Below are positions 1 to 19,417 of a stretch of DNA of 19,417 nucleotides, in pieces. Numbering within the stretch: the first letter of the stretch is position 1; every line of letters begins with the position of its first letter. The stretch comes from a virus. Below the pieces are notes generated by a model. That model made no database searches, was not told the origin of the DNA, and was given only the letters and a program-made list of their open reading frames with translations. The stretch lies in the UHGV virus genome UHGV-1532611; one strand, given 5' to 3'. The position numbers and the translations under genes were made by a program.

Positions 1-91
1 AAATTGAGCCACAGGACGTCGATAAAGGACGGTTTGGGGCGTCATATCGGGAGCTGCGGACCACTTAATCGCAACTTCCTTAGAAGTAACC

Positions 92-820: not shown

Positions 821-837
821 TAAGAAAGGAGAACTCA

Positions 838-2879: not shown

Positions 2880-2880
2880 C

Positions 2881-2890
2881 ACTAAATACA
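2881..2890 (+). promoter_or_regulatory. Promoter-like motif actaaataca upstream of the capsid fusion gene
   Basis: Member of the recurrent intergenic motif family; the same 10-mer recurs inside the gene at 3427-3436. Confidence 0.3.
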
Positions 2891-2904
2891 TTCAGAAAAA
2901 CAAA

Positions 2905-2922
2905 GAGCGTCGAAAGACGCTC
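2905..2922 (+). promoter_or_regulatory. Stable GNRA hairpin in the 5' leader of the capsid fusion gene (not a terminator)
   Basis: gagcgtc-gaaa-gacgctc: perfect 7-bp stem with a GAAA loop, 16 nt upstream of ATG 2939, with no following U-tract. Confidence 0.35.
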
Positions 2923-2938
2923 CAACAGAGGACTGGTA

Positions 2939-4843: not shown

Positions 4844-4844
4844 G

Positions 4845-4874
4845 AAAAGCAAAAGCAAAAGCGAAAGCGAAAGC
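4845..4874 (+). repeat. Tandem hexanucleotide repeat (RAAAGC x5) just after the capsid gene stop
   Basis: aaaagc aaaagc aaaagc gaaagc gaaagc, starting 2 nt after the TAA at 4841-4843 and ending 20 nt before the terminator. Confidence 0.6.
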
Positions 4875-4894
4875 TGAAACTGCTGAATAATCAG

Positions 4895-4920
4895 AGGACT
4901 CCTTCGGGAGTCCTTTTTTC
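4895..4920 (+). terminator. Intrinsic terminator after the capsid gene
   Basis: 8-bp stem aggactcc / ggagtcct around a UUCG tetraloop, followed by a run of six T. Confidence 0.75.
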
Positions 4921-4929
4921 GTTTCTGGA

Positions 4930-4940
4930 CTAAATATAAT
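4930..4940 (+). promoter_or_regulatory. Promoter-like motif ctaaatataat upstream of the 4955 gene
   Basis: Immediately downstream of the capsid terminator; also contains a TATAAT hexamer. Confidence 0.3.
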
Positions 4941-4954
4941 AAAAAGGAGACAAC

Positions 4955-5251
4955 ATGATTTTTCCATATTCAGAAAAACAAAAACAGTCTTTCTTAACTC
5001 GTTTCGGACAGAAAATCAAAATTAACGATTCTGATGAACTCGGTATTGTTGAAATTGAGATTAACAACGATAACGGACAAGTAAGCGAGACAATCTATAT
5101 AACCGCTGATATCAATAAAGTTAAGCAAGAAGATGAAGTTCTATTAAACGAGATTCTGTATACCATTGCGTATCTTGTTAATGATGGTTCAGGACTTGCT
5201 AATTGTTATCTGGCATTTAAAGGCGAACAGGAGACATCATTCTATGACTAA
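4955..5251 (+). CDS. Hypothetical protein at the head-tail connector / head completion position
   Basis: 98-aa ORF with a strong SD (aaaaaggaga, 4941-4950). Lies between the capsid gene and the U-like gene. Function assigned from position only. Confidence 0.55.
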   Translation: MIFPYSEKQKQSFLTRFGQKIKINDSDELGIVEIEINNDNGQVSETIYITADINKVKQEDEVLLNEILYTIAYLVNDGSGLANCYLAFKGEQETSFYD

Positions 5252-5642
5252 TCTGCCACGTTTAGGAATTAAACGCGCTCTGGAAGAAATAATCGTTAAA
5301 GAACTTAATCTGAAATACGTCAAAAACGCTTTCACAACTGGTGTTAAAGAACCTGTTCAAGTAATGATTCCAGGAATGACAGAAGAATATACGCGAATCG
5401 GTTTGCAATCGAAACTTGCAAGTGTTCTTAGTATTACGATTGATATTTTCTCAGAGAAAAGCGAAACAGGCGTTCACAAAGCCGTTTACGACTTAATTTC
5501 TATTAAAGCTAATCATGAAAAACTTATCCCATTTAAAATCGATAAGATTTATCCAAGTTCGAGCTTCACTGATTATGATAGTGAAGCATCAAATGGTCAT
5601 GTTAGCGCACAAATAATTTTAACTTTCGAATACTTAATGTGA
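5244..5642 (+). CDS. Tail terminator protein (lambda gpU-like)
   Basis: Start chosen at ATG 5244 (SD aggaga at 5229-5234), which overlaps the stop of the upstream gene (ATGACTAA); the ORF track begins this frame at 5166. The product is 132 aa, like gpU (131 aa), and its C-terminus ILTFEYLM resembles gpU's VITYEM. Confidence 0.65.
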   Translation: MTNLPRLGIKRALEEIIVKELNLKYVKNAFTTGVKEPVQVMIPGMTEEYTRIGLQSKLASVLSITIDIFSEKSETGVHKAVYDLISIKANHEKLIPFKIDKIYPSSSFTDYDSEASNGHVSAQIILTFEYLM

Positions 5643-5649
5643 GACTAAA

Positions 5650-6675
5650 ATGACAAACGATATTTTTGTAGGAAATAACGTCAGAGTTTCAGTTAATCCG
5701 CTAATCGTTGAAATCCCAGGATATAACGACCCAGGTTATGTAAGCACTGATAAACTGGCTGCATTCCCTGTTATCGGATTTAGAAAAGAAGTTCAGACAC
5801 TAGAAGATTACAGAACCGATTTCACAACGAAACTTTCAGGTGACGTAACAATTAACGACACTTCAATAAGCTTATTTGAAGACAGTTCTGACCCAGTTTA
5901 TCAGTTGCTTGATGAAGCTCTTATGGAAAAGAAACTCCTTAGATTCAGAAGTCTTTATGTTATCGATGGAGAAACAAAGAAAGATAATGATGCTGGTCTT
6001 TATCATATTTTTAATGCTTATGTAACGAAGAAAGAAACATCAGGTTCGGCTAACTCAGTCGTTACAACAACTTTTAATCTTTCTCCTGATGGTCAGTTGT
6101 TTACAGGTTTTGCTGAATTCTCAGTTCCGTTAAACGTTGGCGATTATGGTATTGGTGCTGGTACAGAAGAAATCGCAGGCGTTAAAGACTTAGGATTATT
6201 AACTGGTAACAGATGTGTAACAGTCGATGCAACAAACAGCGATAACCCTTATAACTCTGGCACGTCTGCTATGGCTATTCAGCATCCTGATGGTCAAGGT
6301 TGGGAGCTTATTGGTTCGTCAGTCGGTAATCCAAGCATCAGAATCAGAAACAAACAACAAAGCGGTGAAACTGTTACTGAATCTCCGTGGGTCAAAGTCT
6401 ATACAGAACTTGAACGTCCAACTCCTGAAGATATTAATGCTTTGCCTATTACTGGTGGAGAACTCAAAGGATCTTTGACTATTCAGGAATATCTGAACGT
6501 TCGTAAAAAGATTTCTGCGCCACAAGGTGAAATCTTGGCTCTAAATAGTAATGAAATTAACTCAACTTCTGTCAAGGTCAAAGGCAAAGAAGTCTATTCT
6601 CCAAGTAATAAACCAACGCCATTAGAGATTAATTGTGTAGCGTTAGGAGAAACCTTAGACGCAGGAGTATTTTAA
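5650..6675 (+). CDS. Major tail (tube) protein, gpV-like N-domain plus a ~180-aa C-terminal extension
   Basis: Directly follows the U-like gene as V does in lambda. The N-terminal ~160 aa are paralogous to the 9833-10309 product (AFP..G..EV.T......KL.G......D shared). The C-terminal half is Ser/Thr/Gly-rich, consistent with an Ig-like decoration domain as in gpV. Confidence 0.65.
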   Translation: MTNDIFVGNNVRVSVNPLIVEIPGYNDPGYVSTDKLAAFPVIGFRKEVQTLEDYRTDFTTKLSGDVTINDTSISLFEDSSDPVYQLLDEALMEKKLLRFRSLYVIDGETKKDNDAGLYHIFNAYVTKKETSGSANSVVTTTFNLSPDGQLFTGFAEFSVPLNVGDYGIGAGTEEIAGVKDLGLLTGNRCVTVDATNSDNPYNSGTSAMAIQHPDGQGWELIGSSVGNPSIRIRNKQQSGETVTESPWVKVYTELERPTPEDINALPITGGELKGSLTIQEYLNVRKKISAPQGEILALNSNEINSTSVKVKGKEVYSPSNKPTPLEINCVALGETLDAGVF

Positions 6676-6687
6676 CGGATAAAGAAA

Positions 6688-9600
6688 ATGGCAAATAATA
6701 AAGTTAAACATTATAGAACAGACGTCGCCGGAAGAAAGCCAGAAGCGAAAAACATGCTTGATGGTGAAATCGCTATTAACTTAGCCGATAAAAAGATTTT
6801 TACTAAATTCGGTGACGCTGTTATTAACATCGGTAATGGTGCTGATGCTGTTGTTGAAGGCGGTCAGACCTTTACTGGAAAAATTAAAGCAAGTGATATT
6901 GAATCCGATTCTAATCTGACTTTAAAAAATCTTGATAAAAGCGATATTGTTTTTGCTGATGAACACGACAAAGCAAAAGCACGTATTAGTTCTCCTGCTC
7001 AGACAGACTCTAAAGGTGAACTTCGTGTTACGGTAGCGAAAGGAAAAGGTACAGGAGAGAGTTCTGACTTCGTGCTTAACGGTAATGGTCAGTTATCTTT
7101 GCCTGCTGCTCCTGTTGCTCCTGATAGCGCTACGCGTAAAGATTACGTTGATTCTGAAATCAGCAAAGTTCAAACAGGTTCAAGTGCTGACCTGACGAAA
7201 CTCGAACAGAAAGTTGATGCTAACGACGCTGCTATTAACACTCGCGTTGATAATCTGAATTCAAAAGTTGACCAGAACGACACGGCTATTAATACGAAAG
7301 TTGATGCGAATAAAGCTGATGCTGACGAAAAGATTAAAGCAGTTAATGACCGTTTGACTGTTGATAATCAGACTCTGAAAGACATGATTGACACCAAAGT
7401 TAATAAAGCTGGCGACACGATGACTGGCGACTTAACTGTTCCTTCTGTTCATGCTGCTGGTAATGTATACGCAGGAACTTTGAAAGTTACACCTGCTGGT
7501 AATAACGGTGATGTTCTGAGTATTGAAAACCACGGCAGAACTTCAAAGACTATTCATCAAATTGCATACGCAACGGATACGGATGATCGACTGTTATTTC
7601 GTCGTGATGCTAACGAAGGAACCGACGCATTAGATCTAATGACCATGACTTGGGGAAAAACAGGCAGAGGAATGTCAATTGATATTTCAGGTCAAGCTAG
7701 AATCACTGATGCAGTAACAACTCCTTTAATGTCCGTTGCAAGCAACTTTGCCGTTGGAAATTCACTGGGTTTAAACTCTATCGCGATTGGTGATTCCGAC
7801 ACTGGTTTTAAATGGAGAGAAGACGGATGGTTAAACTTCTATTCAAATAACGTTGTAACAGCTTCTATTGCAGGATCTGAAAACTACTTTAATAGAAAAA
7901 CTCATTTCCGTTTCAGAAGTGATGATGGTGATTCGAATCTGATGGCTCCTGAAGGTTATTCATTAATTAATATCGATACGACAACCGACGGTAATAACAT
8001 TGGTGACGCCACGACTTATTTCGGATTAGTTAATGGTGGAAAATATAATCATTATCTGAGAGGTTCAGGCAGAACTTATATTGATACTAAAGAAGGTCTT
8101 GGTGTTGCTGGCCCTGCAAGTTTCTATAAAACGATTTATAATAATAAGCCTTACGGATGGTATGACTCGGAAAGCTTACCCGACTGGAACACTCCTGAGC
8201 AACAATCAAATCATTTAAGAAAAGTTAGAGCCGTTGGTGCTGGATCCATTTATCATGAGTTGGCAATGGCTAATCATCCTGACGATAGGCTGGATAACTC
8301 TATATGTTGGTTTCATGGTGATACTCCTGAATATTGGATGGGTTCATTAAACACCAATGGTCGATTGAATCTTGCAAGTGGTGTTTCTGTCAACGGCGAA
8401 TCTAATGCTATTCAGTTGAATATTCCTGCGTCGAATCAGGCAAGTTATATGTCTGGCAATATGGACGGTCGCAATAATACCTGGATTCTTGGCAAGACAA
8501 GTGAGAATCTCGATATTGTCTGGTCTCAGAATATGAGAAATGATTTCTCTACGTCATCTGGTGTTACTCTTAGAACTAACGGATCCGTGACGGTTCAGAC
8601 TGGTACTAATACCGCGATGGATATTCAGCATAATACAATTCAAATTGATGGTGCAAGATGGGCAGCAACCAATGATCATGCTTACGCTAATCAATGGAGA
8701 CAAAATGCTCCTATGCAGATTAACTTCGGAGCAGTTGCTGGTGAAAGTGATTATTATCCCGGATATTCGATGAACTCTGTTTCCGTAGGACACGGATTCT
8801 CTACTGTTGTTGAATTAGGAACTATTAGAGGACCAGCTAATTCATGGGGCAAAGGAATTCTTCGTGTTGGGACGAAAGAAGAATCGACGTTCGGTAAAAT
8901 GGCTAATTATGAATTTGATATCGATGGTCGTTTTGCTGTTCCTGGAAAAATTAATACTCCTTCTGTTGAAACAAATCGTTTAACAAGTTTTGGTATTAAC
9001 ACGGACAACGTACTAGGTGGAAACTCAATCGCGTTTGGTGATAACGATACAGGTATTCGACAAGTTACGGACGGAAACTTAAGCATTTTTACTAATGGTA
9101 TTCAAATCGCAACCTTTAACACAGCTGGTTTGACAATTGATCGGTCAATTACGATTAACACCCATAATGAGTCTCGCGGTGTTTATGTTGGAAACGTTAG
9201 AACCGGGGCAAGCAATGCGATGATTCAAGGTGTCGTTGACGGTTGGCCGCAGTGGTCAGCGTGGCGTGATCGTCCTGCGGGAATGATTGTTGAAGCTCAG
9301 ACTCGTGATAAATGTATTAATATCTGGAAACATGTTCATTGGGGCACAGAATACGGTGCTGCGATGGACATTTATAATCCGGGTAGTTCTGCTCCCGAGG
9401 CTGCACTTCACATTGGTGGTGCAGACTATCTATTCCTCGGTAATGGAACAGCAAATGCGATCCAATGGGTTAGCACTTCTGATAAACGTCTGAAATCGAA
9501 CTTTGAAGAAATTGAAAACGCAGTTGATAAAGTCGAGAAACTTACTGGTTACGTATACGATAAGAAATCTGATTTAGTCAAAACTGAATATTCATTCGAA

Positions 9601-9771
9601 GTTCGTGAAGCAGGTATTATTGCTCAAGAACTGAAAGAAGTATTACCAGAAGCTGTTAGTTCTTTCGGACCTGACGAAATTCTTGGTGTTAACTCTGCTG
9701 CTGTAAACGCGTTGCTGGTTAATGCTATCAAGGAATTAAGTGCTCGCGTTAAAGAACTTGAAGCTAAATAA
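6688..9771 (+). CDS. Tail fiber protein with C-terminal S74-type intramolecular chaperone (auto-cleaving) domain
   Basis: 1027 aa. Contains the KAGDTMTGDLTV phage-fiber repeat motif, a helical repeat region (DANDAAINTRVDNLNSKVDQNDTAINTKVD), two copies of an LG.NSIA.GD.DTG motif, and the C-terminal SDKRLKS...GIIAQEL...AIKEL domain that closely resembles the T5 pb1 / K1F endosialidase chaperone domain. Confidence 0.88.
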   Translation: MANNKVKHYRTDVAGRKPEAKNMLDGEIAINLADKKIFTKFGDAVINIGNGADAVVEGGQTFTGKIKASDIESDSNLTLKNLDKSDIVFADEHDKAKARISSPAQTDSKGELRVTVAKGKGTGESSDFVLNGNGQLSLPAAPVAPDSATRKDYVDSEISKVQTGSSADLTKLEQKVDANDAAINTRVDNLNSKVDQNDTAINTKVDANKADADEKIKAVNDRLTVDNQTLKDMIDTKVNKAGDTMTGDLTVPSVHAAGNVYAGTLKVTPAGNNGDVLSIENHGRTSKTIHQIAYATDTDDRLLFRRDANEGTDALDLMTMTWGKTGRGMSIDISGQARITDAVTTPLMSVASNFAVGNSLGLNSIAIGDSDTGFKWREDGWLNFYSNNVVTASIAGSENYFNRKTHFRFRSDDGDSNLMAPEGYSLINIDTTTDGNNIGDATTYFGLVNGGKYNHYLRGSGRTYIDTKEGLGVAGPASFYKTIYNNKPYGWYDSESLPDWNTPEQQSNHLRKVRAVGAGSIYHELAMANHPDDRLDNSICWFHGDTPEYWMGSLNTNGRLNLASGVSVNGESNAIQLNIPASNQASYMSGNMDGRNNTWILGKTSENLDIVWSQNMRNDFSTSSGVTLRTNGSVTVQTGTNTAMDIQHNTIQIDGARWAATNDHAYANQWRQNAPMQINFGAVAGESDYYPGYSMNSVSVGHGFSTVVELGTIRGPANSWGKGILRVGTKEESTFGKMANYEFDIDGRFAVPGKINTPSVETNRLTSFGINTDNVLGGNSIAFGDNDTGIRQVTDGNLSIFTNGIQIATFNTAGLTIDRSITINTHNESRGVYVGNVRTGASNAMIQGVVDGWPQWSAWRDRPAGMIVEAQTRDKCINIWKHVHWGTEYGAAMDIYNPGSSAPEAALHIGGADYLFLGNGTANAIQWVSTSDKRLKSNFEEIENAVDKVEKLTGYVYDKKSDLVKTEYSFEVREAGIIAQELKEVLPEAVSSFGPDEILGVNSAAVNALLVNAIKELSARVKELEAK
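9478..9768 (+). other. Region of the tail fiber gene encoding the S74 intramolecular chaperone domain (aa 931-1027)
   Basis: The SDKRLK motif begins at codon 9478-9480, followed by the conserved GxxAQELKEVLPE and AIKEL...ELEAK segments; released by autocleavage in known homologs. Confidence 0.75.
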
Positions 9772-9774
9772 CAA

Positions 9775-9794
9775 AAAGGGGAGAAATCCCCTTT
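9775..9794 (+). terminator. Hairpin / weak terminator after the tail fiber gene
   Basis: aaagggga-gaaa-tccccttt: GC stem with a GNRA loop; the U-tract is short (three T, part of the stem). Confidence 0.5.
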
Positions 9795-9795
9795 G

Positions 9796-9805
9796 CTAAA
9801 TAAAC
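9796..9805 (+). promoter_or_regulatory. Promoter-like motif ctaaataaac upstream of the 9833 gene
   Basis: Directly after the 9775-9794 hairpin. A near copy (ctaaataac, 9764-9772) overlaps the fiber stop codon. Confidence 0.3.
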
Positions 9806-9832
9806 TATATTAACTCAAATAGGAAATTAAAA

Positions 9833-10309
9833 ATGGCAGACAAATTTGATATTTTTGCTGGCTCTTACGTCAGTGTGTTCTATAACTCAGAAATTGCAAA
9901 CACCGATCTGAATTCAGAAAAGTTTGTTGAAATTCCTGAAACTGGTGCATTCCCTTCTACGGGTATTGAACGCGAAGTTATTACAGCTCCTAACTTCTCT
10001 CACAAATACTCCCGTAAACTGGTTGGTCGTGGCTCTGTTCCTGATATCGACTTGACCGTTAACTATATTCCAGAAAGCGTTCATGATGTTCTGATTAAGC
10101 TTGCGGAAGATGGTAAACGTGGTCAGTTTAAAATCGTTTATTGGATTGATGCTACTAAAAAACTGGGTGTTGCAAAAGTTTATAACGGCTTCTTGTCAAG
10201 CGCTGTTCATAATGGCGGTGAATCAGAAGTTCAAGGTCTGACAATGACACTGAGTGTTGATGGTGGTCCTGTTGTTTCTGGTGTTGTTGATTTGACATCA
10301 AGTGATTAA
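9833..10309 (+). CDS. Tail-tube-fold protein: second gpV-like paralog, or a distal tail (M/Dit-like) ring protein
   Basis: 158 aa. Aligns by eye with the N-domain of the 5650-6675 product, and its C-terminal pattern (KIVYWID...VYNGFLSSAV) resembles the gpV N-domain as remembered. Preceded by a terminator and promoter-like motif, followed by a terminator. Confidence 0.6.
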   Translation: MADKFDIFAGSYVSVFYNSEIANTDLNSEKFVEIPETGAFPSTGIEREVITAPNFSHKYSRKLVGRGSVPDIDLTVNYIPESVHDVLIKLAEDGKRGQFKIVYWIDATKKLGVAKVYNGFLSSAVHNGGESEVQGLTMTLSVDGGPVVSGVVDLTSSD

Positions 10310-10313
10310 TTAA

Positions 10314-10337
10314 AAAGACTCCGCAAGGGGTCTTTTT
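10314..10337 (+). terminator. Intrinsic terminator after the second tail-tube paralog
   Basis: agactcc-gcaa-ggggtct (7-bp stem with one G-U pair, GNRA loop) followed by seven T. Confidence 0.7.
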
Positions 10338-10341
10338 TTGG

Positions 10342-10351
10342 CTCTAAATAA
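10342..10351 (+). promoter_or_regulatory. Promoter-like motif ctaaataaag upstream of the 10367 gene
   Basis: Exact 10-mer shared with 14477-14486 and 15967-15976; sits just after the 10314-10337 terminator. Confidence 0.35.
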
Positions 10352-10366
10352 AGTCAGAGGTGAAAC

Positions 10367-10783
10367 ATGTTTAAATTTCAAGCTGACTTATCAAAATTAC
10401 TTAACCGCTATATCAATCAGCAACACGTTTTCGGTCAAAACGACTGTAATATCCTTGTTGCTGAATATATCGACCTTGTTTGTGCTACTGAATACACAGA
10501 CAAATTAAAAGACAAATACACGAGTATTCCTGAAGGTCTCAAGATTTGCAAAGAGCTAACTGGTTTTAATAACGTTCTCGAAGCGTGTGAAACGCATCTT
10601 GAGAAATCAGAAACTATAGAAACAGGCTCGGTTATCTTAATTAAGAAAAAACATAAAAACCGTGTCTATTACGTTGCATCTATCGTTTTTAATAATAGAG
10701 CATTAGTTGAACATGAAAATAAATATCAACTGATAAACGTCAACGATTTTAATTTTGAATTAATTTTTAACAGGAGAAAATAA
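10367..10783 (+). CDS. NlpC/P60-like tail tip protein (gpK C-terminal domain homolog, no MPN/JAB domain)
   Basis: 138 aa. HVFGQNDCNILVAEY matches the Cys motif of the gpK NlpC/P60 domain (HGVTDCYTLF) and GSVILIKKKHKNRVYYVASIVFNNRALVEH matches GDVLL...NHAAIY.GDGELLHH. Stop overlaps the start of the J-like gene (TAATG). Confidence 0.5.
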   Translation: MFKFQADLSKLLNRYINQQHVFGQNDCNILVAEYIDLVCATEYTDKLKDKYTSIPEGLKICKELTGFNNVLEACETHLEKSETIETGSVILIKKKHKNRVYYVASIVFNNRALVEHENKYQLINVNDFNFELIFNRRK

Positions 10784-13700
10784 TGGCTATTGTAGCTATT
10801 GGTGCAATTATCGCAGGTGCTTCCGCGGCTGCTGCTGCTTACGCTGCGGGTGCTGCTCTTGCTTTGGCAATTGGTATTGGTGTCGCTGTTGCTGCTGTTT
10901 CTGCTTTGATGTCAACTCAGATGGCGCAGAACGTTCCCCGATTTAACAGCACAGACACAGCAACGACATTAGGAACAACGTCAGATCCATCAAGTGTTAT
11001 TCCTATTATCTATGGTGAACAGCGTACAGGTACGATTAACGTTTGGAAAGCTGTTGGCGTTGATACGACATATTTGGTTCAGATCTTTGCAATCTGTGAA
11101 GGTGAAGTTGATAGCTTCAAAAACCTTTATATGGATAATCAGAAAATCTTACTTGATGGCGTTTATAAAGACGGTGTTCTTCCGAAAGGTTCAATCGCTG
11201 CTGAATATCAGCAATATGTTGAAGTTGAATTCTCAACTGGTAAGCCATACGGTCACGTTTTTACTCTTGCTCAGAAATATCTAGGAAATTCAGATGCTGG
11301 CTGGCCTGATTCTGCTACTGGTAATAACATCGCTGCTTGTTGTGTTGTTATGCGCAAACGTAACTCAGACCTTCAAAACCAAGCTGATATCCTGCAACCT
11401 AACAGTCAAGTATCTGTTGACGTTAGAGGACGTTTGATTACAGATCTGAACACAGGAGAACGCGTTTCCTCGAACAACGGTCCGAGTCAGATTGTTGATT
11501 ATCTAACAAATGATAGATACGGTCTTGGAATTCAGATTGATAAAATCGACCTTGATAGTTTTAAAGAAGCTGCTCGATATGCAAAACTGAACAGTTTATT
11601 TTCTGATGGTGCAACTGACCCGAACGGTTCATTCAAAGAAAACTTAACTCAGCTTGCAGGTGCATTTAACGGTATTATCACAGAGACTTTCGGTAAAGTA
11701 ACATGCAGAATCGATGGACCTGATGTTGTTCAATATGACTTCAACGAAGATAATATTAACGCTGGTACTGTTAGCTTAAACGATGGCGGTTCTGAGAATT
11801 ATTACAATACTCTGAACGTGAAATATCAAGATCCGTCGATTGACTATTCTGACCAAGTTCTGCGTTATCCGTCTGACGTAACAAATGATGGAACAATCGC
11901 GAAAGATAAACGTATTATCGCTAAAGATATCAGTTACAGATTCGTGAAATCAAAATCTCAGTTGGATAAAATTGCTTCAATCGAACGTAACAAATCTCTG
12001 TTAAAGCAAGTTATTAGTTTTTCAACTGCTGATGCTTATACCGCACAGGTCTGGGATGTTATCAGAGTTAATTTCTCTGAACTGGAACTTGTGAATTCAT
12101 TATGGCGTATTACTAATATCGATCGTTCGATGAATAAAGGTGCTGCTGGTATCGTTACTATTACTGCTTCTGAATATATCGAAGAAGTTTATACCAATCT
12201 TGACTACGCGAAAGACCCTGATAACACAGGAAGCAACATTCCTAATAAATCTGTTCTGATTGCTCCTAAGAATCTGACAGTTAAAGCAGTTGCTGAAACA
12301 GCTTTAGGAAGAACTCTGAAAGTTCAATGGACGTCTGAACCTGATTATAATCGCGCAGGTTATTATATTCAGTATAGTCTTGCTGGTAAGAACTCTTGGA
12401 TTCAAGCAGGTTTCACATCAGGCGATTATTTCTTGATTATGAGTCTTGACCCTAATCAGAAATTTGATATTCGTGTTTGTGCTTCTGGTGTTGTGTATCG
12501 TTCAGATTGGGTTTATGTCAATAACGTTAACCCTGAGGTTATGTATAACTTACCAGTCGTTACAGGACTGCACCTAGTGAACGCAGTTGAAAATCAATAC
12601 ACCACTAACAAGACTCAATTTGAATTCGCCTGGGACGACCAGAGCGCACAGAAATTCTATGTTGACGACACGTTACAGACATTCGGTGAAGTTTTTCAAT
12701 ATTACGAAATCAAAATTGAAGGTCAGCGTCCTGTAATTTACAAGACTAAAGACTTAGGTTTTGTATATGACTTTAATATGAACTTGGGTAATGGTCTGAG
12801 TCGTGAATTGAAAGTTTCTGTTACTGCATACGGTCACGCTGGTATGAAGTCAGATCCTGCTGTTATTACTGTTAAGAACAATCAAGCTCCTGCTATTCAA
12901 GGTTTCACAGCTTCGAATGGTCCTGGAATGCTGATGTGCTCTTGGAATGACCCACGCGATAATAAGCCTGAAGTTCCTGACTTCAAAGGCACAATCGTTC
13001 ATATTGCGAAAGACCAGAGTTTTAATGAAATTGTTCACGTTTATTCAAGTTCAAGTCCGTTCTTAGATAATTTTCCATTAGAAGATGGTCAATTCTATGT
13101 TCGTTCAGCTTGGTATGACGTATTCGGACAAGACCAGATTACTTGGTCAGAATCGAAGTTTATCGATATGAAATGGGATATTCCGTGGACTGACGATATG
13201 AAAGAACAGTTAAACGATTTGCTTGATTTGGATAAACGTGTTGATGGTGCTATCGATGAAGCATTAGACCTCGCTAACAAATACACTGATACGAAAGTTA
13301 CAGCATCCGAGCAAAAAGTTACTACTGAATTAAATCAGACTATCACGACGAAAAACACCGAACTTCATACTCAGATTACTAATGAAACTAATGGCGCTAT
13401 CAATCAGGCTATCAGTATTCAAGAATCTAACTTTGATGGAAAACTTAACTCGGCTATTACGAAAGTTGAAAAAACTCAAGCTGATGATAGACAAGCAACC
13501 GCAAGTTCAATTAATCAATTGAAAGCTGAAACAAACACAGCTATTGCAACAGTTAGTCAAGAATCAAAAGCAAGCGTTGACGACTTAACAGGAACGATTA
13601 ATAGCAAATGGGCAGTTCAGACTAATGCCGACGGTGTTGTTGCTGGTATCAGTATGCTGGCTAATAAGAATCCTGACGGTTCAAAACAGTCTAGTATTGT

Positions 13701-14472
13701 TTTTAACGCTGATAAAATCGCTATAACGAATAACAATACTCCTGCGGGTGCTGTTGCTCCGTTTATGGTCGCTGATAACAGAGTTTATATGGATTCTGCA
13801 ATGATTCGTAATGCTTCTATCGGTTCAGCACAGATTGCAGATGCTTCTATTAACAACGCTAAGATTCAAAACGGTGCTATTAACAACGCGAAGATTGAAA
13901 ACGGTGCGATTACTACTGCGAAAATTGGTAATGCTCAGATCGGTTCAGCACAGATTGCTTATGAAATATCTTCTGATAACTGGTTCCCTTCCGGTGGTAC
14001 TCAAGGTTGGACAATCAGAAAAGACGGTTGGGCTTCTTTCCAAAACGTTAATATCAGAGGTAACATTCAAGCAGATTCTGGTTATTTCGCAGGTGAAATC
14101 AGAGGCGGTTCAGGTTATTTCACAGGAACTGTATACGCTGACAGAATTGAAGGTGACGTTATCAAAATGGGTCATATAGATCCGTGGACAACAGTTCATA
14201 TTCCTGCTGTTAACTGGAACAGAGTAATTTCTATTCCAAACCTTTCGATTTCAGGCAGAACTTATTCCGGTGGTGCTTGGGGCTACGGAACTGCATGGAT
14301 TAATATGTCGAACGGTCAAGAAATCGTAAGAACAGTTACCAGTGCAATGAGTGGTTCAAACGGTGGTACAGGCATTATCTATGCGGGACAAGCTGTTGAT
14401 TTGAGTTACGGTGCTGACTTGAATCATGCGACCGCAGCAAGAGCAGTTTACTTTATCAGTAAACAACAATAA
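10783..14472 (+). CDS. Tail tip / host specificity protein (gpJ-like) with gpI-like N-terminal segment
   Basis: 1229 aa. The N-terminal Gly/Ala-rich hydrophobic stretch followed by VIPIIYGEQRTGTINV resembles the gpI C-terminus (VLPVLYGEMRVGSRVV). IVDYLTNDRYGLG matches the gpJ LTHPRYGMG region. Two FN3-like segments, a helical region and NAKIxNGAI-type repeats are present, and WAVQTNADGVVAGISM...FNADKIAI resembles gpJ [20 protein letters not shown]...VAANRIAF. The C-terminal ~170 aa are the likely receptor-binding domain. Confidence 0.85.
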   Translation: MAIVAIGAIIAGASAAAAAYAAGAALALAIGIGVAVAAVSALMSTQMAQNVPRFNSTDTATTLGTTSDPSSVIPIIYGEQRTGTINVWKAVGVDTTYLVQIFAICEGEVDSFKNLYMDNQKILLDGVYKDGVLPKGSIAAEYQQYVEVEFSTGKPYGHVFTLAQKYLGNSDAGWPDSATGNNIAACCVVMRKRNSDLQNQADILQPNSQVSVDVRGRLITDLNTGERVSSNNGPSQIVDYLTNDRYGLGIQIDKIDLDSFKEAARYAKLNSLFSDGATDPNGSFKENLTQLAGAFNGIITETFGKVTCRIDGPDVVQYDFNEDNINAGTVSLNDGGSENYYNTLNVKYQDPSIDYSDQVLRYPSDVTNDGTIAKDKRIIAKDISYRFVKSKSQLDKIASIERNKSLLKQVISFSTADAYTAQVWDVIRVNFSELELVNSLWRITNIDRSMNKGAAGIVTITASEYIEEVYTNLDYAKDPDNTGSNIPNKSVLIAPKNLTVKAVAETALGRTLKVQWTSEPDYNRAGYYIQYSLAGKNSWIQAGFTSGDYFLIMSLDPNQKFDIRVCASGVVYRSDWVYVNNVNPEVMYNLPVVTGLHLVNAVENQYTTNKTQFEFAWDDQSAQKFYVDDTLQTFGEVFQYYEIKIEGQRPVIYKTKDLGFVYDFNMNLGNGLSRELKVSVTAYGHAGMKSDPAVITVKNNQAPAIQGFTASNGPGMLMCSWNDPRDNKPEVPDFKGTIVHIAKDQSFNEIVHVYSSSSPFLDNFPLEDGQFYVRSAWYDVFGQDQITWSESKFIDMKWDIPWTDDMKEQLNDLLDLDKRVDGAIDEALDLANKYTDTKVTASEQKVTTELNQTITTKNTELHTQITNETNGAINQAISIQESNFDGKLNSAITKVEKTQADDRQATASSINQLKAETNTAIATVSQESKASVDDLTGTINSKWAVQTNADGVVAGISMLANKNPDGSKQSSIVFNADKIAITNNNTPAGAVAPFMVADNRVYMDSAMIRNASIGSAQIADASINNAKIQNGAINNAKIENGAITTAKIGNAQIGSAQIAYEISSDNWFPSGGTQGWTIRKDGWASFQNVNIRGNIQADSGYFAGEIRGGSGYFTGTVYADRIEGDVIKMGHIDPWTTVHIPAVNWNRVISIPNLSISGRTYSGGAWGYGTAWINMSNGQEIVRTVTSAMSGSNGGTGIIYAGQAVDLSYGADLNHATAARAVYFISKQQ

Positions 14473-14476
14473 CGTT

Positions 14477-14486
14477 CTAAATAAAG
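14477..14486 (+). promoter_or_regulatory. Promoter-like motif ctaaataaag upstream of the 14518 gene
   Basis: Exact 10-mer, 4 nt after the J-like stop and 31 nt before ATG 14518. Confidence 0.35.
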
Positions 14487-14517
14487 ACAAGGAGGTCTTT
14501 TAAAAAGGAGATTCAAG

Positions 14518-14802
14518 ATGGTCGATATAGCACTGATCATTTCCATCTTGGGTGCTCTAGGAGGTTTCTTGGCTTGGGTTTATGCCGAAATTAAATCAAA
14601 CAATGAAAAACGAATTGACCTTGAGAAACGTTTCTCAGACATCGAAAAAAGCATAGCCGTTAATGACGCAAAAGATGCTTCGCTTATAAGCGATATAACA
14701 CGACAACAGGATGAATTTCGAGAGGTCAAATCTGATTTGAAGAATTTAGAAGGAAGAACAGCAAAGCTAGATATCGACCTAGCAGTTCTAAGAGGAAAAT
14801 GA
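14518..14802 (+). CDS. Small membrane-anchored coiled-coil protein (one N-terminal TM helix); function unknown
   Basis: 94 aa with two SD-like elements upstream (aaggagg 14489-14495, aaggag 14505-14510). IALIISILGALGGFLAWVYA is a predicted TM helix, followed by a charged helical region. Stop overlaps the next start (ATGA). No cysteine, so not a lipoprotein. Confidence 0.6.
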   Translation: MVDIALIISILGALGGFLAWVYAEIKSNNEKRIDLEKRFSDIEKSIAVNDAKDASLISDITRQQDEFREVKSDLKNLEGRTAKLDIDLAVLRGK

Positions 14803-15275
14803 AAAGAAAAGAGATTCCGATTTATAAGCAAGAACTCTTTCAAAAGCAAAAAGGTCTTTGTGCTTTAACTGGCATAAAGATTCATGAAGTTAATAAAGCC
14901 CATCTTGACCATGACCATATATTAACAGGCTCTAACGCAGGCAGATGCAGAGGATTATTAATCGCTCAAGCAAACGTCCTAGAGGGCAGAATAAAACATC
15001 AGTTTAAACGTTCGGGTCTCGATGGGAAAATTGACTACATCGAGTTTTTGAAGAATCTTGTTCAGTATCTTGAAAAAGACTACTCAGACAATCCTACGCA
15101 TCCACAACTTATTCCTGATTTAAAGAAGGCGTTCTCTCGAAAAAATCTTTCTGAGATGAAAGCTATTACAGGTTCAAACCTTAAAACGAAAAAGGAGCTT
15201 GAAAAAGTCTACTCAAACCAAATAAAGGTGAAATATGAAAATGAAATATCTCCAAGCATTGGCAAAACACGCTAA
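14799..15275 (+). CDS. T4 endonuclease VII (gp49)-like junction-resolving / HNH-fold nuclease
   Basis: 158 aa (T4 endo VII is 157 aa). HLDHDH, GRCRGLL, N..EG and KHQFKRSGL.G..DYIEFL.NL..YL..DYS.N..HP are collinear with T4 endo VII as remembered. The catalytic Asp/His/His/Asn/Glu equivalents are present. Confidence 0.8.
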   Translation: MKRKEIPIYKQELFQKQKGLCALTGIKIHEVNKAHLDHDHILTGSNAGRCRGLLIAQANVLEGRIKHQFKRSGLDGKIDYIEFLKNLVQYLEKDYSDNPTHPQLIPDLKKAFSRKNLSEMKAITGSNLKTKKELEKVYSNQIKVKYENEISPSIGKTR

Positions 15276-15432
15276 AGATTATCTTATTGTTCTATTTCTC
15301 GTTACTATAACTTATAACACTGTTGCTGTTCCTGTTCTGCAAGCTTTCGATATTAAAGCACCTAAAATGATTCTTATCAGCGAAGAACAGATAAAAACAT
15401 TTGGGACGCTTCTGATGTCAGGAGTGAACTAA
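15235..15432 (+). CDS. Small single-pass membrane protein, hypothetical
   Basis: 65 aa with SD aaggtga (15222-15228) before ATG 15235. Predicted TM helix YLIVLFLVTITYNTVAVPVL. Overlaps the 3' end of the endo VII-like gene by 41 nt in another frame, and its stop overlaps the next start (TAATG), so the call is tentative. Confidence 0.4.
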   Translation: MKMKYLQALAKHAKDYLIVLFLVTITYNTVAVPVLQAFDIKAPKMILISEEQIKTFGTLLMSGVN

Positions 15433-15974
15433 TGGCAAAAGCAAAAGATGTTATGAAAGACCTTGAAAAATGGCGAATCAAAGAATCTGACGTGTTCAGT
15501 AAGAAAGTAACCAAAGCGTCTAAACTCGCTTCTGTTGAGTTGCAAAGAAAAATCAACAGACGAGTCGATGGACCAGTTAATTTCACTAAGAACGCAGTAG
15601 GTTTCAGTTTCAGATACGATCAGAACGGGTCACGAAATAGAATATTCATCAAAGACAAGCAGGCTGATTATCTTGCTCCGTTAATTGATGATAACAAAGG
15701 AATTAACAAGTTTGTTCCAACTGGTGTAAGAGGTTCAAAGAACAAATTCGGTAACATTCCTAACTTGAAATCAAGAAATAATCTTGAAGCTGTCAAGCAA
15801 AAAAAAGATGGCGTAACTCGAACGATCCTCATTAAAACTAACGTTAAAAAGCAAGACCGTCGTTTAATTGCTGTATTCAAGAAAAATCAACACAGAAGAA
15901 AAACTCTGGGTTCATGGAATCAAATCTCTGACGATATATTCAAAACCGTTAAGCGTGTTGCGGGTACTAAATAA
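15432..15974 (+). CDS. Lys/Arg-rich basic protein, hypothetical
   Basis: 180 aa, strongly basic, no cysteine. SD ggagtga (15421-15427). No recognisable family by eye. Confidence 0.6.
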   Translation: MAKAKDVMKDLEKWRIKESDVFSKKVTKASKLASVELQRKINRRVDGPVNFTKNAVGFSFRYDQNGSRNRIFIKDKQADYLAPLIDDNKGINKFVPTGVRGSKNKFGNIPNLKSRNNLEAVKQKKDGVTRTILIKTNVKKQDRRLIAVFKKNQHRRKTLGSWNQISDDIFKTVKRVAGTK

Positions 15975-15976
15975 AG
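15967..15976 (+). promoter_or_regulatory. Promoter-like motif ctaaataaag upstream of the 15992 gene
   Basis: Exact 10-mer overlapping the stop codon of the 180-aa gene, 15 nt before ATG 15992. Confidence 0.35.
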
Positions 15977-15991
15977 TCAAAAGGAGAACAA

Positions 15992-16309
15992 ATGAACATT
16001 CACGATTTTGATACTTACAGATTAGACGAACTTGCCGACATCTACGTTAACGAGATTAATCCCGAGTCAATGACTGTTCCTTACGGTTGCGAACACATCA
16101 AAGATAAGCGAATTAAAAAATATCTGTTCAACGATAAGAACGTTTTTATTGTTTCAACACAGAAGAAAAAACCTAATTGTCATTTCAAATTAGGACAGAC
16201 AGTTCGACTGCAAGGTCCATTTTTTGAGACCGAAGCGAAGAACTTAGGAATGATTGAATATATCCACAAAGGTTTCAGAATGTACGGATATTTCTTTCAA
16301 TGGAAATAA
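15992..16309 (+). CDS. Hypothetical small protein (moron-like unit)
   Basis: 105 aa with a strong SD (aaaaggaga, 15977-15985). A promoter-like motif lies upstream (15967-15976) and a terminator hairpin immediately downstream (16311-16336). Contains two Cys and several His. Confidence 0.65.
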   Translation: MNIHDFDTYRLDELADIYVNEINPESMTVPYGCEHIKDKRIKKYLFNDKNVFIVSTQKKKPNCHFKLGQTVRLQGPFFETEAKNLGMIEYIHKGFRMYGYFFQWK

Positions 16310-16310
16310 C

Positions 16311-16336
16311 AAAAGGGAGCCTCGCGCTCCCTTTTT
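16311..16336 (+). terminator. Intrinsic terminator after the 105-aa gene
   Basis: gggagc-ctcgc-gctccc stem-loop flanked by aaaa upstream and ttttt downstream. Confidence 0.7.
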
Positions 16337-16348
16337 CATAAATAAAAG
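16337..16348 (+). promoter_or_regulatory. Promoter-like motif cataaataaaag upstream of the G-like chaperone gene
   Basis: Directly after the 16311-16336 terminator, 24 nt before ATG 16373. Confidence 0.3.
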
Positions 16349-16372
16349 AAAACTCAACAAAGGGAAACAAAA

Positions 16373-16681
16373 ATGAATTTCGATGAAATGTTAGCAAGTC
16401 TTTCGCCTTCTCGCGAACCAGTAGAAATCAACGGCTTTAAATTCTATGCTCGTCCTATGACCGTATCTGAATTCGGTGAATTCTATTTCAAAAATGAAAA
16501 CACAGAAGAACGTAACGACCGAATGATTCTGAATTGTATTCAACACGAAGACGGAACTCCTGTTTTTAAAGAAATCGCTCAAGTTCAGAAACTTTATACC
16601 ACTGTTCGTTCAACTCTTGCTAGTGCTGTTTCTACTGCCAGTATTCTCAGTAAGAAATCAGACGTTCTGGAAAAGAACTAA
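16373..16681 (+). CDS. Tail assembly chaperone (gpG-like)
   Basis: 102 aa immediately upstream of the tape measure gene. EINGFKFYARPMTVSEF resembles gpG FEHNGVTVTLSELSALQ. Its 3' end overlaps an open -1 frame (the T-like frame). Confidence 0.6.
   Translation: MNFDEMLASLSPSREPVEINGFKFYARPMTVSEFGEFYFKNENTEERNDRMILNCIQHEDGTPVFKEIAQVQKLYTTVRSTLASAVSTASILSKKSDVLEKN
16669..16675 (+). other. Candidate -1 ribosomal frameshift site (G GAA AAG) for a G-T fusion
   Basis: GGAAAAG lies in the G-frame 2 codons before the G stop, inside the G/T overlap. It differs by one base from the lambda G-T slippery site G GGA AAG; the A-site AAG to AAA slip is canonical. Confidence 0.35.
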
Positions 16682-16716
16682 GACAGAACTGGGCTAAATC
16701 ATTTCAGTATAGAACA

Positions 16717-17079
16717 ATGCTACGTCGCGGATTATCTAACGATGAAATTCAACAGATGTCCGTGATGATGTATTACGAACTATGGTTTTTCGACTCGTTT
16801 ATTGAACCTCAAGGTCCTGTCTATAACGATTTCTATCAAGCACGTTTGGTCCACACTATCGAAGCTAATAATCCTAATCTTACAAAAGAATATAGGAAAA
16901 AGCTCAACATGAAAGATCACCTGCTTATTAAAGATTCTGTGTTTAAGTCTCAAGAGGAAATCGAAAAAGAGAAAGAGCAACAGGAGCTTAAACGCAAGAA
17001 AGCTGTTGAATCGATGTTCGACCCTGCTCTGTTAGACAAAGTTAGACTGAAACAACAAAAAAAGGTGAATAATGGCTAA
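16717..17079 (+). CDS. Tail assembly chaperone T-like segment, probably made as a G-T fusion by -1 frameshift
   Basis: The frame is open from 16624 and overlaps the 3' end of the G-like ORF in the -1 frame. ATG 16717 has no SD. Stop overlaps the tape measure start. Coordinates are those of the ATG-initiated ORF; the fusion product would begin at 16373. Confidence 0.5.
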   Translation: MLRRGLSNDEIQQMSVMMYYELWFFDSFIEPQGPVYNDFYQARLVHTIEANNPNLTKEYRKKLNMKDHLLIKDSVFKSQEEIEKEKEQQELKRKKAVESMFDPALLDKVRLKQQKKVNNG

Positions 17080-19417
17080 ATCACGTTATGACGTCGAGAT
17101 TAACGGAGATAACAAAGGCCTATCAATTTCTATTGACAAGTCCATGAAGAAACTGAATGAACTCGATTCAGTAGCTAATGGACTTTTTAGTAATATGACA
17201 GGACCGTTGAATAATCTCAACAACGGAATCTCAGGTATTGCAGGAATGTCCAAGGGTATGCAAGCTCTGGGGATTGCAGGAATGGCAGCAGGTGCAGGTG
17301 TAGCTGTTCTTAATACCGCGTTAGAAAAAACGAGAGAACTCAATCAACTCTCTACATCAACTGGTCTTTCAGTTGAATATCTGCAACAACTTAAAAATGA
17401 ATTTCGCGAAACAGGTATGGAGATTGACCGTTTCGGAGATTTAAACAAAGACACATTAGATAAACTTGGCGATTCATTCAGAGAAGGTCATGGCGGTATT
17501 GCAGACGACCTCAAAGAATGGGGTATTGGTCTTGAACAGTACACACAATACGTCAACGATGCCCAAGGCGGTATTAAAGCGCTTGTTCAGACTTATTATG
17601 ACCTGAAAGCTGCTGGTGCAAGTCAAGCTGAAATCGTGAACGGAATGGAGTCAATGGCTTCTGATGCTTCACATTTGATTTCAACTCTTGAAAAATACGG
17701 TTCAACTCAAGACGCATTAAACGCTATTAACAATCGTTCTGTTGATATCACAAACGAAACAGCAAAAGAATATAAAGAATTCGACGAAAACATGAAAACG
17801 TTAACCGTCAATCTGGATAATCTAACTGTTAACGTTATGAGTCCGTTAGTTAAGAAAATGAACGACCTGTTCGAAATTGCTAATAAAGATTGGACAGCAA
17901 GTAACTTTTTAGACTTCATGGGAACATTAAGCACGTTGCGTCCTGATGCTGCTCTTTCTGATTGGGCTGCCGAAGCGACTGTTAACAAAATGGGCGAATG
18001 GATGCCTAATGCGGGTTTTGCTAAACGTAGAAAAGCAATTGCAGATGAAGAAAAGTTTCAGAAAGATATTGCCGCAGCAAGAATCAAAGCTGATGAAAAT
18101 CTTCGTTTACAGCAAGCAAATGCTAAAACTGCCGCAGATCTGAAAAGAAAAAAAGATGCATTAGCTGCCGAAGACGCTAAGAAAGAAGCTGAAAAAGCTA
18201 AACGCGAAGCTGACAAAATAGCAAGAGAAGCTAAAGCTGCTTATGATAAGATGATGCAAGAGCGTCAGACAGCGTTACAGAATCTTTCCAGTCTTGATGC
18301 TGCAATTCTCAGTCAAGAAGGCAGAACTATTTCTAGTCAAGTCAGTAAAGTTAGAGAAGCTGTTGAAACAATCGACGAACTTGAAAAGAAAGGAATAATC
18401 AGCGCTACACAGGCAAATCAACGTCGTAAAATGCTTTTTGAGAATTCAAACAAAGAATTCAAACAAACTCTTATGGCAAGTCCTGAAGAAATCGGTGCTA
18501 TTACGTCGAGTCTTGAAATCGTATATCAACAACAACTTGAACAACTCGAAGCTAAGAAAGCCCAATCGCTTATCGGTCAGAAAGAATATAATTCTCAGTT
18601 AGAAGCTATTCAGAAAGACCATCAGCAACGTCTTGAAGCAATTAAAGCGACTGCTGGCGATGGTAATATGTCTAATCTTAAAAATCTTGATGCTATCGGT
18701 TTTGCAACTGATGAAGAAAAAATGGCTATTCAACAGAAAATGTTGGAAGAACAATTTCAGAAGATGCAAGAACAGAACCAAAAGCTATATGACGGACAAT
18801 TGATTTCTTATGAAGATTATCTCAAACAGAAACAGCGTCTTGAGCAAGCTTATGCGGTTAAATCGAAAGCAATTACTTTCACTGAGATTCAGACAAAACT
18901 CCAGATGTATAACGGTTTTGCTTCTGGTATGGGTGCAGTTATAGCCGGTATTTCTGGTGAAAACTCTAAAGCTGCTCAAGCAATGTTTGCAGTTGAAAAA
19001 GGAACAGCAATCGCAAGCGGTATGTTAAACGCTTATGAATCAGCAACTGCTTCAATGGCAAAATATCCTGGTCCTTTAGGTTACGCTCTGGCTGCTTCAA
19101 GTTATGCAAGAGTTATCGGACAAGTCATGCAGATGAAATCAGTGAATCTTACTGGTATGGCTCACGATGGTATTTCTAATGTTCCAAGAGAAGGGACATG
19201 GCTGCTTGATGGTGGCGAACGTGTCGTTGATGAAAGAACAAACGGCGACTTGAAAGACTTCTTAGATAATCAGAAAACAGGAGGCGAAACAAAAATCGAC
19301 GCAAGTATTCACGTTTCAGGGAATGTTACTGATCAGCGTTGGTTTGCTGAACAATTAAAACGTCAGCAACAGAACATCGCGGCTATTGTTCAAGACAGCA
19401 ACAGACGCAAGATGTAA
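17072..19417 (+). CDS. Tail tape measure protein
   Basis: 781 aa, largely helical and Ala/Gln/Lys/Glu-rich, with Gly/Ala-rich hydrophobic segments near both ends (GIAGMAAGAGVAVL; GMGAVIAGISG), directly after the G/T-like chaperone pair. Using the lambda rule of about 0.15 nm per residue this predicts a tail of roughly 115-120 nm. Confidence 0.8.
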   Translation: MAKSRYDVEINGDNKGLSISIDKSMKKLNELDSVANGLFSNMTGPLNNLNNGISGIAGMSKGMQALGIAGMAAGAGVAVLNTALEKTRELNQLSTSTGLSVEYLQQLKNEFRETGMEIDRFGDLNKDTLDKLGDSFREGHGGIADDLKEWGIGLEQYTQYVNDAQGGIKALVQTYYDLKAAGASQAEIVNGMESMASDASHLISTLEKYGSTQDALNAINNRSVDITNETAKEYKEFDENMKTLTVNLDNLTVNVMSPLVKKMNDLFEIANKDWTASNFLDFMGTLSTLRPDAALSDWAAEATVNKMGEWMPNAGFAKRRKAIADEEKFQKDIAAARIKADENLRLQQANAKTAADLKRKKDALAAEDAKKEAEKAKREADKIAREAKAAYDKMMQERQTALQNLSSLDAAILSQEGRTISSQVSKVREAVETIDELEKKGIISATQANQRRKMLFENSNKEFKQTLMASPEEIGAITSSLEIVYQQQLEQLEAKKAQSLIGQKEYNSQLEAIQKDHQQRLEAIKATAGDGNMSNLKNLDAIGFATDEEKMAIQQKMLEEQFQKMQEQNQKLYDGQLISYEDYLKQKQRLEQAYAVKSKAITFTEIQTKLQMYNGFASGMGAVIAGISGENSKAAQAMFAVEKGTAIASGMLNAYESATASMAKYPGPLGYALAASSYARVIGQVMQMKSVNLTGMAHDGISNVPREGTWLLDGGERVVDERTNGDLKDFLDNQKTGGETKIDASIHVSGNVTDQRWFAEQLKRQQQNIAAIVQDSNRRKM

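Follow-up and report, generated by a model that had tools for sequence, protein, structure and literature searches.

A prophage-encoded homolog of T4 endonuclease VII with intact catalytic residues and without the canonical zinc site

Endonuclease VII (endo VII, gp49) of phage T4 is the textbook junction-resolving enzyme, a domain-swapped homodimer that cuts branched DNA such as four-way junctions. It debranches DNA before packaging (PMC10956419, PMC5714182), with Arg74 as a junction-stacking residue (PMC10956419). Its zinc site, a treble-clef zinc knuckle with four cysteine ligands (Cys4), has been treated as essential and highly conserved: the exchanges C23S and C61S abolished both DNA binding and activity (Giraud-Panis 1995, as cited in PMC6083498), the mutagenesis summarized in the same paper showed that C26S and C58S are each tolerated alone, and a survey of 313 proteins with the endo VII motif found two highly conserved cysteine pairs, CX2-4C...CX2C (PMC6083498). 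Two 'DHHRN' enzymes, the restriction enzyme Hpy99I and the homing enzyme F-CphI, contain an endo VII-type beta-beta-alpha-metal domain as well (PMC2699513, PMC6083498); in F-CphI it comprises residues 71-129, C-terminal after an extra N-terminal region (PMC6083498). At the superfamily level, many His-Me fingers have no zinc knuckle, and P1 Ref and other members of this kind provide a precedent for a beta-beta-alpha-metal core without treble-clef zinc (PMC5714182). Our literature search, which was of incomplete coverage, found no paper on a zinc-less gp49-type enzyme. In this study, we analyzed a stretch of 19,417 nucleotides of the virus genome UHGV-1532611 (hereafter the window), which encodes an endo VII homolog with just one of the four zinc ligands. 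The chromosomes of Escherichia coli MS 115-1 and 2021CK-01361 contain the window with 100% identity, and its positions 1-19417 form the right part of a low-GC prophage of about 34 kb (MS 115-1, NZ_CP146665.1 3135117-3169011; L001/L002).

By its sequence, the 158-amino-acid protein is a full-length, end-to-end homolog of T4 endo VII and a member of the Endonuclease_7 family (PF02945), yet one without the zinc site of the canonical enzyme. A phmmer search against all PDB sequences returned T4 endo VII (1en7/1e7d) with an E-value of 2.1e-27, aligning residues 10-122 with T4 residues 12-126, and the T4 mutants N62D and H43N at 1e-26, while the next match had an E-value of 0.17. The protein scored 41.6 bits with PF02945 (cutoff 23.6) and matched PHROG 423 'endonuclease VII' (E 4e-36). 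When the profile of the clade described below was compared with T4 endo VII by hhalign, a match of 99.9% (E 9e-35) was obtained over 150 columns, reaching T4 residue 154 of 157. The similarity is thus far beyond chance, and the collinearity with T4 endo VII, which an initial annotation of the window had noted, is borne out. Both proteins (T4: 157 amino acids; PDB 1EN7, 1E7D, 2QNC) are about 38-39% identical and share the motifs 'RSGL', 'Y(L/I)..L..L..YL..DY' and 'HP' as well as a helical C-terminal region, for which the AlphaFold2 monomer model (predicted local distance difference test score 88) gave helices at residues 104-147. In a fold comparison, T4 endo VII was the sole significant match. 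The C-terminal dimerization domain PF09124 reached 18.1 bits in the protein, under the cutoff of 22, and precomputed PF09124 matches exist for several clade members. Inspection of sequence and hydropathy revealed neither a signal peptide nor a membrane segment. Homologs are named 'endonuclease VII' or 'endonuclease domain-containing protein' at NCBI, and an NCBIfam search returned nothing for the nuclease or the neighboring proteins.

The phmmer alignment pairs all active-site residues with identical ones of T4, namely D37 with D40, H38 with H41, H40 with H43, R51 with R54, N59 with N62, and E62 with E65; likewise, Arg71 aligns with the junction-stacking Arg74. The zinc ligands are different: C21 (T4 C23) alone survives, whereas T24, I55 and A58 stand in place of C26, C58 and C61. 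Both the catalytic equivalents (HLDHDH and N..EG) and the loss of three of the four ligand cysteines had been proposed in the initial annotation and are in agreement with the alignment, in which its motifs LCALTG, HLDHDH, GRCRG, LLIAQAN and N..EG were all found. The whole protein contains six histidines (29, 35, 38, 40, 67, 101) and just two cysteines, Cys21 in LCALTG and Cys50 in GRCRG, the pair named in the initial annotation, and a Cys4 site at shifted positions is therefore impossible. Compared with Hpy99I and F-CphI, in which the domain is joined to separate recognition modules and the CX2C...CX2C zinc site is kept, the protein has the gp49 architecture without the site. It also differs from P1 Ref and similar enzymes, which belong to other families with other stabilizing decorations, as the loss occurred here inside an otherwise conserved gp49-type scaffold.

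The loss is shared by a clade of close homologs. A word-indexed search yielded 24 proteins, which originate from E. coli, Enterobacter hormaechei, Klebsiella aerogenes, Pantoea and metagenomes; 23 of these cover the full length or almost all of it and are 52-98% identical. All 23 have lost the zinc site and conserve C21 and every catalytic residue. Throughout the clade, the residue at position 24 is T or S and that at position 58 is A or V, and most members have L, I, V or T at position 55; two ligands are kept in the Klebsiella aerogenes proteins P0004 and P0006 with C at this position (C-T-C-A) and in the Pantoea proteins P0022 and P0023 with H (C-T-H-V). The pairwise ratio of nonsynonymous to synonymous substitution rates (dN/dS) was 0.024 for the closest pair (99% identical) and 0.10-0.20 for more distant unsaturated pairs, and the zinc-less protein is therefore maintained by purifying selection. 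These values, the reading frame that is intact in every copy from four genera, and the invariant catalytic residues make it very unlikely that a decaying or catalytically dead gene has been left behind in a defective prophage, an explanation for which the inactivity of the T4 single mutants of C23 or C61 and the state of the terminase gene in MS 115-1 could be cited. In this strain, the terminase gene is split by an element of the IS3 family (L001 5751-6871, immediately before window position 1), and packaging of DNA by this copy of the prophage is therefore probably impossible.

To place the clade in its family, 1.84 billion cluster representatives were searched exhaustively with phmmer, giving 267 proteins at E <= 1e-3, of which the best 150 were aligned with the clade and T4; the following figures refer to the 168 scorable sequences, that is the clade, T4 and the best-scoring family representatives. 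The zinc site CC[C/H]C is present in 73 sequences and missing in 95, comprising 23 of this clade and 72 others, and the catalytic D, H and H are invariant across all 168. The other zinc-less sequences typically read C-[LT]-[DSHQ]-[AV], with Cys (74%) or Asp (24%) in the column of C21. Zinc-less sequences contain a median of two cysteines, and 51 of the 95 have two or fewer. Loss of the zinc site is thus not unique; it is frequent among the best-scoring endo VII-like representatives, which lowers the novelty of the protein described here. These other zinc-less proteins from metagenomes and genomes, for example P0038, P0044 and P0049, resemble the clade in having intact catalytic residues and usually the first ligand (C or D), but they are just 30-41% identical and not its closest relatives. 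P0038 and P0049 gave only distant matches to cultured phages, and the site is present in both inspected cultured-phage homologs of other zinc-less representatives, from a Klebsiella Molineuxvirinae phage and from Pseudoalteromonas phage HP1. In a neighbor-joining tree with the four ligand columns masked, the clade was monophyletic and nested among CCCC and CCHC sequences including those of T4 and the phage DCP80 record described below; over 100 column resamplings, a mean of 9.3 of its 10 nearest outgroups were zinc-containing. This tree and the parsimony count (17 state changes) are rough and lightly tested and support only that the nearest relatives contain zinc, because of which the loss in this clade appears independent of that in other zinc-less groups. 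The closest relatives in cultured phages are the gp49 genes of T4-like Aeromonas and Klebsiella phages, located beside nrdD, with 46.7% identity.

We consider it reasonably probable that the protein is an active, zinc-independent gp49-type resolvase of branched DNA, which is made with the late genes and debranches DNA before packaging. It would be a dimeric beta-beta-alpha-metal nuclease recognizing and cutting branched DNA, in which, as in T4, Asp37 and Asn59 would hold the catalytic divalent ion and His38 would act as general base, assisted by His40, Arg51 and Glu62. The zinc knuckle is presumably replaced by packing of the small or hydrophobic side chains of T24, I26, I55, A58, V60 and L61, and because of this replacement the protein would fold without structural zinc. 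In the family alignment, the clade-specific residues T24, hydrophobic 26, I/L55, A58, V60 and L61 are consistent with such packing; position 26 is L, I or V in the clade versus R, K or E in zinc-containing relatives. Since the gene lies in a late (tail) operon and is translationally coupled to the upstream open reading frame (ORF), the nuclease would be made when DNA is packaged. By analogy with T4 gp49, it would then clear Holliday junctions and branches from concatemeric, replicating or recombining phage DNA and thereby allow the lambda-type terminase to fill heads. No replication or recombination module was recognizable in the prophage of about 34 kb, and the nuclease is therefore its sole DNA-processing enzyme besides terminase and integrase.

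Several points weigh against this interpretation. The T4 variant C61S is inactive, yet the equivalent of C61 is lost here, so that compensation must be assumed. The ligand-loss pattern mirrors the T4 mutagenesis only in part: the dispensability of C26 and C58 and the retention of C23 fit, and the loss of C61 does not. The AlphaFold confidence is no proof of metal independence. The clade has an invariant C21 and an H35 that is more conserved than in zinc-containing relatives, so that a residual metal or another role is conceivable. Some related elements, described below, lack the nuclease (L054) or carry it in reverse orientation (L050/L052), and it is thus dispensable or replaceable there. In MS 115-1, with its disrupted terminase, the enzyme may serve no purpose now. 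The strict retention of the first-ligand cysteine is the point for which the proposed resolvase function does not account.

The same residues could belong to a metal site that is altered and not lost, in which Cys21 and His35, joined in some members by a Cys or His in column 55, or a different set of residues bind a structural or regulatory ion. Besides the invariance of C21 and its frequency in the other zinc-less relatives, this explanation could draw on H35, which is invariant in the clade as opposed to 32% among zinc-containing relatives, on the C or H at position 55 of the Klebsiella and Pantoea members, and on strand pairing, by which T4 residue 38 would be expected near residue 57/58. 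However, most members offer at most two conserved candidate ligands, the remaining invariant histidines occur also in T4, where they are not zinc ligands, and the cysteines of the zinc-less sequences are few, as stated above. The further suggestion that His29 or Cys50 rebuilds a metal site did not hold up: position 29 is T, E, K, S or another residue in the clade, and three members have I or T in place of Cys50, which also occurs in 23% of zinc-containing relatives and is thus neither invariant nor specific to the zinc-less proteins. Sites formed by His29, Cys50 or any clade-specific Cys or His were thus rejected on conservation, and an altered metal site in general is improbable.

The position of the gene is conserved as well, all 23 homologs lying in one and the same slot among tail genes. 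The order tail-tip gene, gene for a protein of 90-105 amino acids with membrane helix and coiled coil, endo VII gene, gene for a membrane protein of 57-70 amino acids, and genes for proteins of about 180 and about 105 amino acids is kept in Enterobacter (L003), Pantoea (L006), a Logan contig (L007) and E. coli PSS-15 and L3Cip3 (L009, L010), and also in 12 IMG/VR contigs of 14.8-35 kb. Judged on IMG/VR contigs and E. coli genomes, all 7 E. coli genomes that have the region contain the nuclease gene, as do 12 of the 16 IMG/VR contigs encoding the 180-amino-acid neighbor, and the divergence of the nuclease gene roughly follows that of the flanking genes. The other four IMG/VR contigs were found via this neighbor as anchor; a scan of genome contigs with its alignment gave 155 pattern matches and 0 confirmed ones. 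In L051, an endo VII gene with a CCHC site ('CPLC ... LLHAQCN') and 46% identity occupies the same slot in the same orientation. In L050 and L052, a CCCC-type endo VII gene lies directly upstream of the small membrane gene but on the other strand, and in L054 endo VII is absent and the coiled-coil gene directly abuts the small membrane gene. A CCCC-type endo VII (42% identity) is also located in the same slot within the first 25 kb of GenBank PQ671644 'phage DCP80' (L008), whose capsid, J-like tail-tip and 180-amino-acid proteins are 64%, 46% and 53% identical to those of the prophage. This record (PQ671644.1 1-45000 analyzed; 'Escherichia phage DCP80', 141 kb, Straboviridae/Gaprivervirus) looks chimeric, with a first part of about 25 kb akin to this temperate prophage type and a T4-like remainder (motA, ndd, rIIA).

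L051 and the DCP80 record share with the window the order of tail tip, coiled-coil membrane gene, endo VII, small membrane gene and 180-amino-acid gene, with flanking proteins 46-60% and nucleases 42-46% identical, and L051 in addition the spacing 'LL-x-AQ-x-N', but they retain all four zinc ligands. Their genes may correspond to the form that preceded the loss, or zinc-containing genes may have been acquired independently. A single gene slot hence holds a series of sites: CCCC/CCHC, then C-T-C-A and C-T-H-V, then C-T-[ILV]-A.

The variable occupancy of the slot, which is occupied, empty (L054) or occupied in reverse with the CCCC type (L050/L052), could also mark a selfish, free-standing homing-type endonuclease on an endo VII scaffold, which would spread by cutting the empty site between coiled-coil and small membrane genes. 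The nearest sequence relatives, gp49 genes of unrelated T4-like phages, imply horizontal transfer, and with F-CphI a homing enzyme with the endo VII motif exists (PMC6083498). Against such a role, the collinearity with T4 gp49 begins at residue 1 and extends to the C-terminal domain, no recognition domain is added, the gene is as regularly present as described above, and it shows divergence in step with its flanking genes and no compositional break. We regard a homing function as unlikely, so that, of the two possibilities named in the initial annotation, a diverged resolvase or a homing-type endonuclease, the former is favored. It is quite improbable that Cys21 and His35 are, instead of a remnant, a new functional element of a zinc-independent resolvase scaffold, such as a two-ligand metal or redox switch, or that the lineage has made the gp49 scaffold into a site-specific mobile nuclease targeting the junction of the coiled-coil and small membrane genes; the second possibility would account for a slot that is occupied, empty or occupied in reverse.

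The proposed time of expression of the resolvase was derived from the gene neighborhood (Table 1). Apart from the two identical chromosomes, the window is 93% identical to four more complete E. coli genomes and about 74% to one (carriers: 7 of 5426 genomes). In MS 115-1, the prophage ends with a large serine recombinase gene beside ybiT and with the tape-measure gene beside ldtB. Megablast of window positions 13000-17000 against GenBank phages gave no match, and the element is therefore without a close sequenced phage relative. The block with the nuclease gene is preceded by genes for terminase, a lambda-type portal, a protease-capsid fusion, a tail fiber, DUF6950 and a J-like tail tip and is followed, after the 180-amino-acid gene, by the tail assembly chaperone and tape-measure genes, which confirms the location in a tail gene cluster seen in the initial annotation. 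No sigma-70-like promoter was detected on the + strand in 14300-16400, and the GC content is 35-43% throughout, without a break at the nuclease gene; hallmarks of a moron (own promoter or terminator, GC break) were thus not found there. Because of the same strand, the ATGA overlap, the missing internal promoter and the uniform GC content, the nuclease gene is placed within the late structural transcription unit. The T4 gene, by contrast, lies beside nrdD in a 170-kb lytic genome and not in the tail operon of a small temperate prophage, although both genes are late and plausibly linked to packaging.

Late expression and a fold of the HNH superfamily would also suit an HNH protein that the terminase requires for cos cleavage, as in the case of HK97 gp74. 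This function is highly improbable, as the gene is not beside the terminase or portal genes and is located about 14 kb downstream, between the tail-tip and 180-amino-acid genes, the terminase has its own GpA nuclease domain, and the protein belongs to the endo VII family and not to the PF01844 HNH type.

With regard to the flanking small membrane proteins, the initial annotation was right that two small ORFs with hydrophobic segments flank the nuclease gene, but their functional coupling to it is doubtful in view of the arrangements in L054 and L050/L052; the two occur as a pair without the nuclease in L054, and they are therefore probably mere neighbors. The downstream ORF of 63 amino acids is, as judged from its family alignment, a genuine conserved gene, and the architecture of the upstream 94-amino-acid ORF is also found in L003, L006, L007, L008, L009, L051 and L054. 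In Pfam, only coiled-coil noise was obtained for the 94-amino-acid ORF and nothing for the 65-, 180- and 105-amino-acid ORFs. A nuclease for conflict with competing phage or host DNA, perhaps acting together with these membrane proteins, might be expected in such an accessory-gene slot between structural genes with two small membrane proteins of unknown function alongside, and the prophage has further conflict genes as cargo, which encode a TIR-domain protein and a reverse transcriptase of the retron type. Yet the membrane pair occurs without the nuclease in L054, the nuclease has no signal peptide, membrane segment or moron-type promoter or terminator of its own, and known defense families were unmatched apart from PtuB in a PADLOC search, which was sub-significant (E 0.005). 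The reading as a defense system was dropped, and a role in conflict is decidedly unlikely. In falling order of probability, the alternatives to the proposed resolvase are a homing-type nuclease, an altered metal site, a conflict nuclease, a terminase partner and a dead gene.

If the protein is the resolvase proposed here, a lineage under purifying selection dispenses with ligands that have been treated as essential. Together with the full-site and two-ligand states that persist in related elements, it offers a natural series on the replacement of a treble-clef zinc knuckle by packing, and it might lead to a metal-independent variant, more tolerant of oxidation, of a nuclease that serves in mismatch and heteroduplex detection. 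The consequences are incremental, and no new mechanism or system is implied.

Table 1. Positions of the endo VII homolog gene, its sequence motifs and adjacent features in the window
Feature	Position	Strand	Basis
Endo VII homolog gene, 158 amino acids, ATG start (stop codon included)	14799..15275	+	ORF list, phmmer, Pfam, hhalign, AlphaFold2 model
Shine-Dalgarno sequence AAGAGGA (14790-14796), followed by ATGA as overlap of endo VII start and upstream ORF stop	14790..14802	+	Direct sequence reading
Zinc knuckle remnant C21-A-L-T24 (T4 C23-L-I-C26), second ligand replaced by Thr	14859..14870	+	phmmer, clade and hhalign alignments
Catalytic H35-L-D37-H38-D-H40 (T4 H38-L-D40-H41-D-H43) with predicted metal-ligand Asp and general-base His	14901..14918	+	Alignments
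I55-A-Q-A58-N59-V-L-E62 (T4 C58-N-L-C61-N62-A-A-E65), ligands 3 and 4 replaced by Ile and Ala, catalytic Asn and Glu retained	14961..14984	+	Alignments
C-terminal terminase fragment	92-817		
Tail-tip gene (J-like, Phage_Tail_Tip), 1229 amino acids, directly upstream of the block	10783..14472	+	
Upstream ORF, 94 amino acids, N-terminal hydrophobic helix and coiled coil, PHROG 1009	14518..14802	+	ORF list, PHROG, hydropathy
Downstream ORF, 63 amino acids, one hydrophobic helix, VVYNxVxVP...IDEA motif, overlapping the endo VII 3' end	15241..15432	+	PGAP annotation of L3Cip3/PSS-15, family alignment, hydropathy
Conserved neighbor, 180 amino acids, weak match to PHROG 1924 'minor tail protein', synteny anchor	15432..15974	+	
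GC-rich hairpin GGGAGC ctcgc GCTCCC, then TTTTTC, directly after the stop of the 105-amino-acid gene	16314..16337	+	Sequence reading

The hairpin listed last may be a terminator or attenuator on the + strand, which would close the transcription unit of the endo VII gene and set the block from tail tip to endo VII apart from the genes for chaperone and tape measure; the scan flagged it on the minus strand alone, and its + strand reading was derived from the sequence. The N-terminus of the tail-tip protein (window 10783-10920) consists of a hydrophobic stretch of about 45 residues rich in Ala and Gly, MAIVAIGAIIAGASAAAAAYAAGAALALAIGIGVAVAAVSAL, which is conserved in the homolog of the DCP80 record and unusual for tail tips. 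The layout of the prophage is odd, as the tail-tip gene lies ahead of the chaperone and tape-measure genes, and two tail genes, one for DUF2163 and one for 187 amino acids, are inverted at the far end beside the serine recombinase gene. In L007 (11792-13306), L051 (3805-5334) and L054 (4739-6250), a serine recombinase gene is found on the minus strand right after the gene for about 104 amino acids, with an endolysin-sized gene between both in L051 and L054, where MS 115-1 has the chaperone and tape-measure genes instead. This placement suggests a rearrangement or differing positions of the attachment site within the phage group. Among the remaining structural genes, the tail-fiber protein of 1027 amino acids (window 6688-9771) carries a C-terminal Peptidase_S74 intramolecular chaperone domain, and the tail-fiber slot of the Enterobacter relatives L003 and L005 contains fibers similar to T4 gp36/gp37 and a gp38-type adhesin, which corresponds to the swapping of a host-range module.

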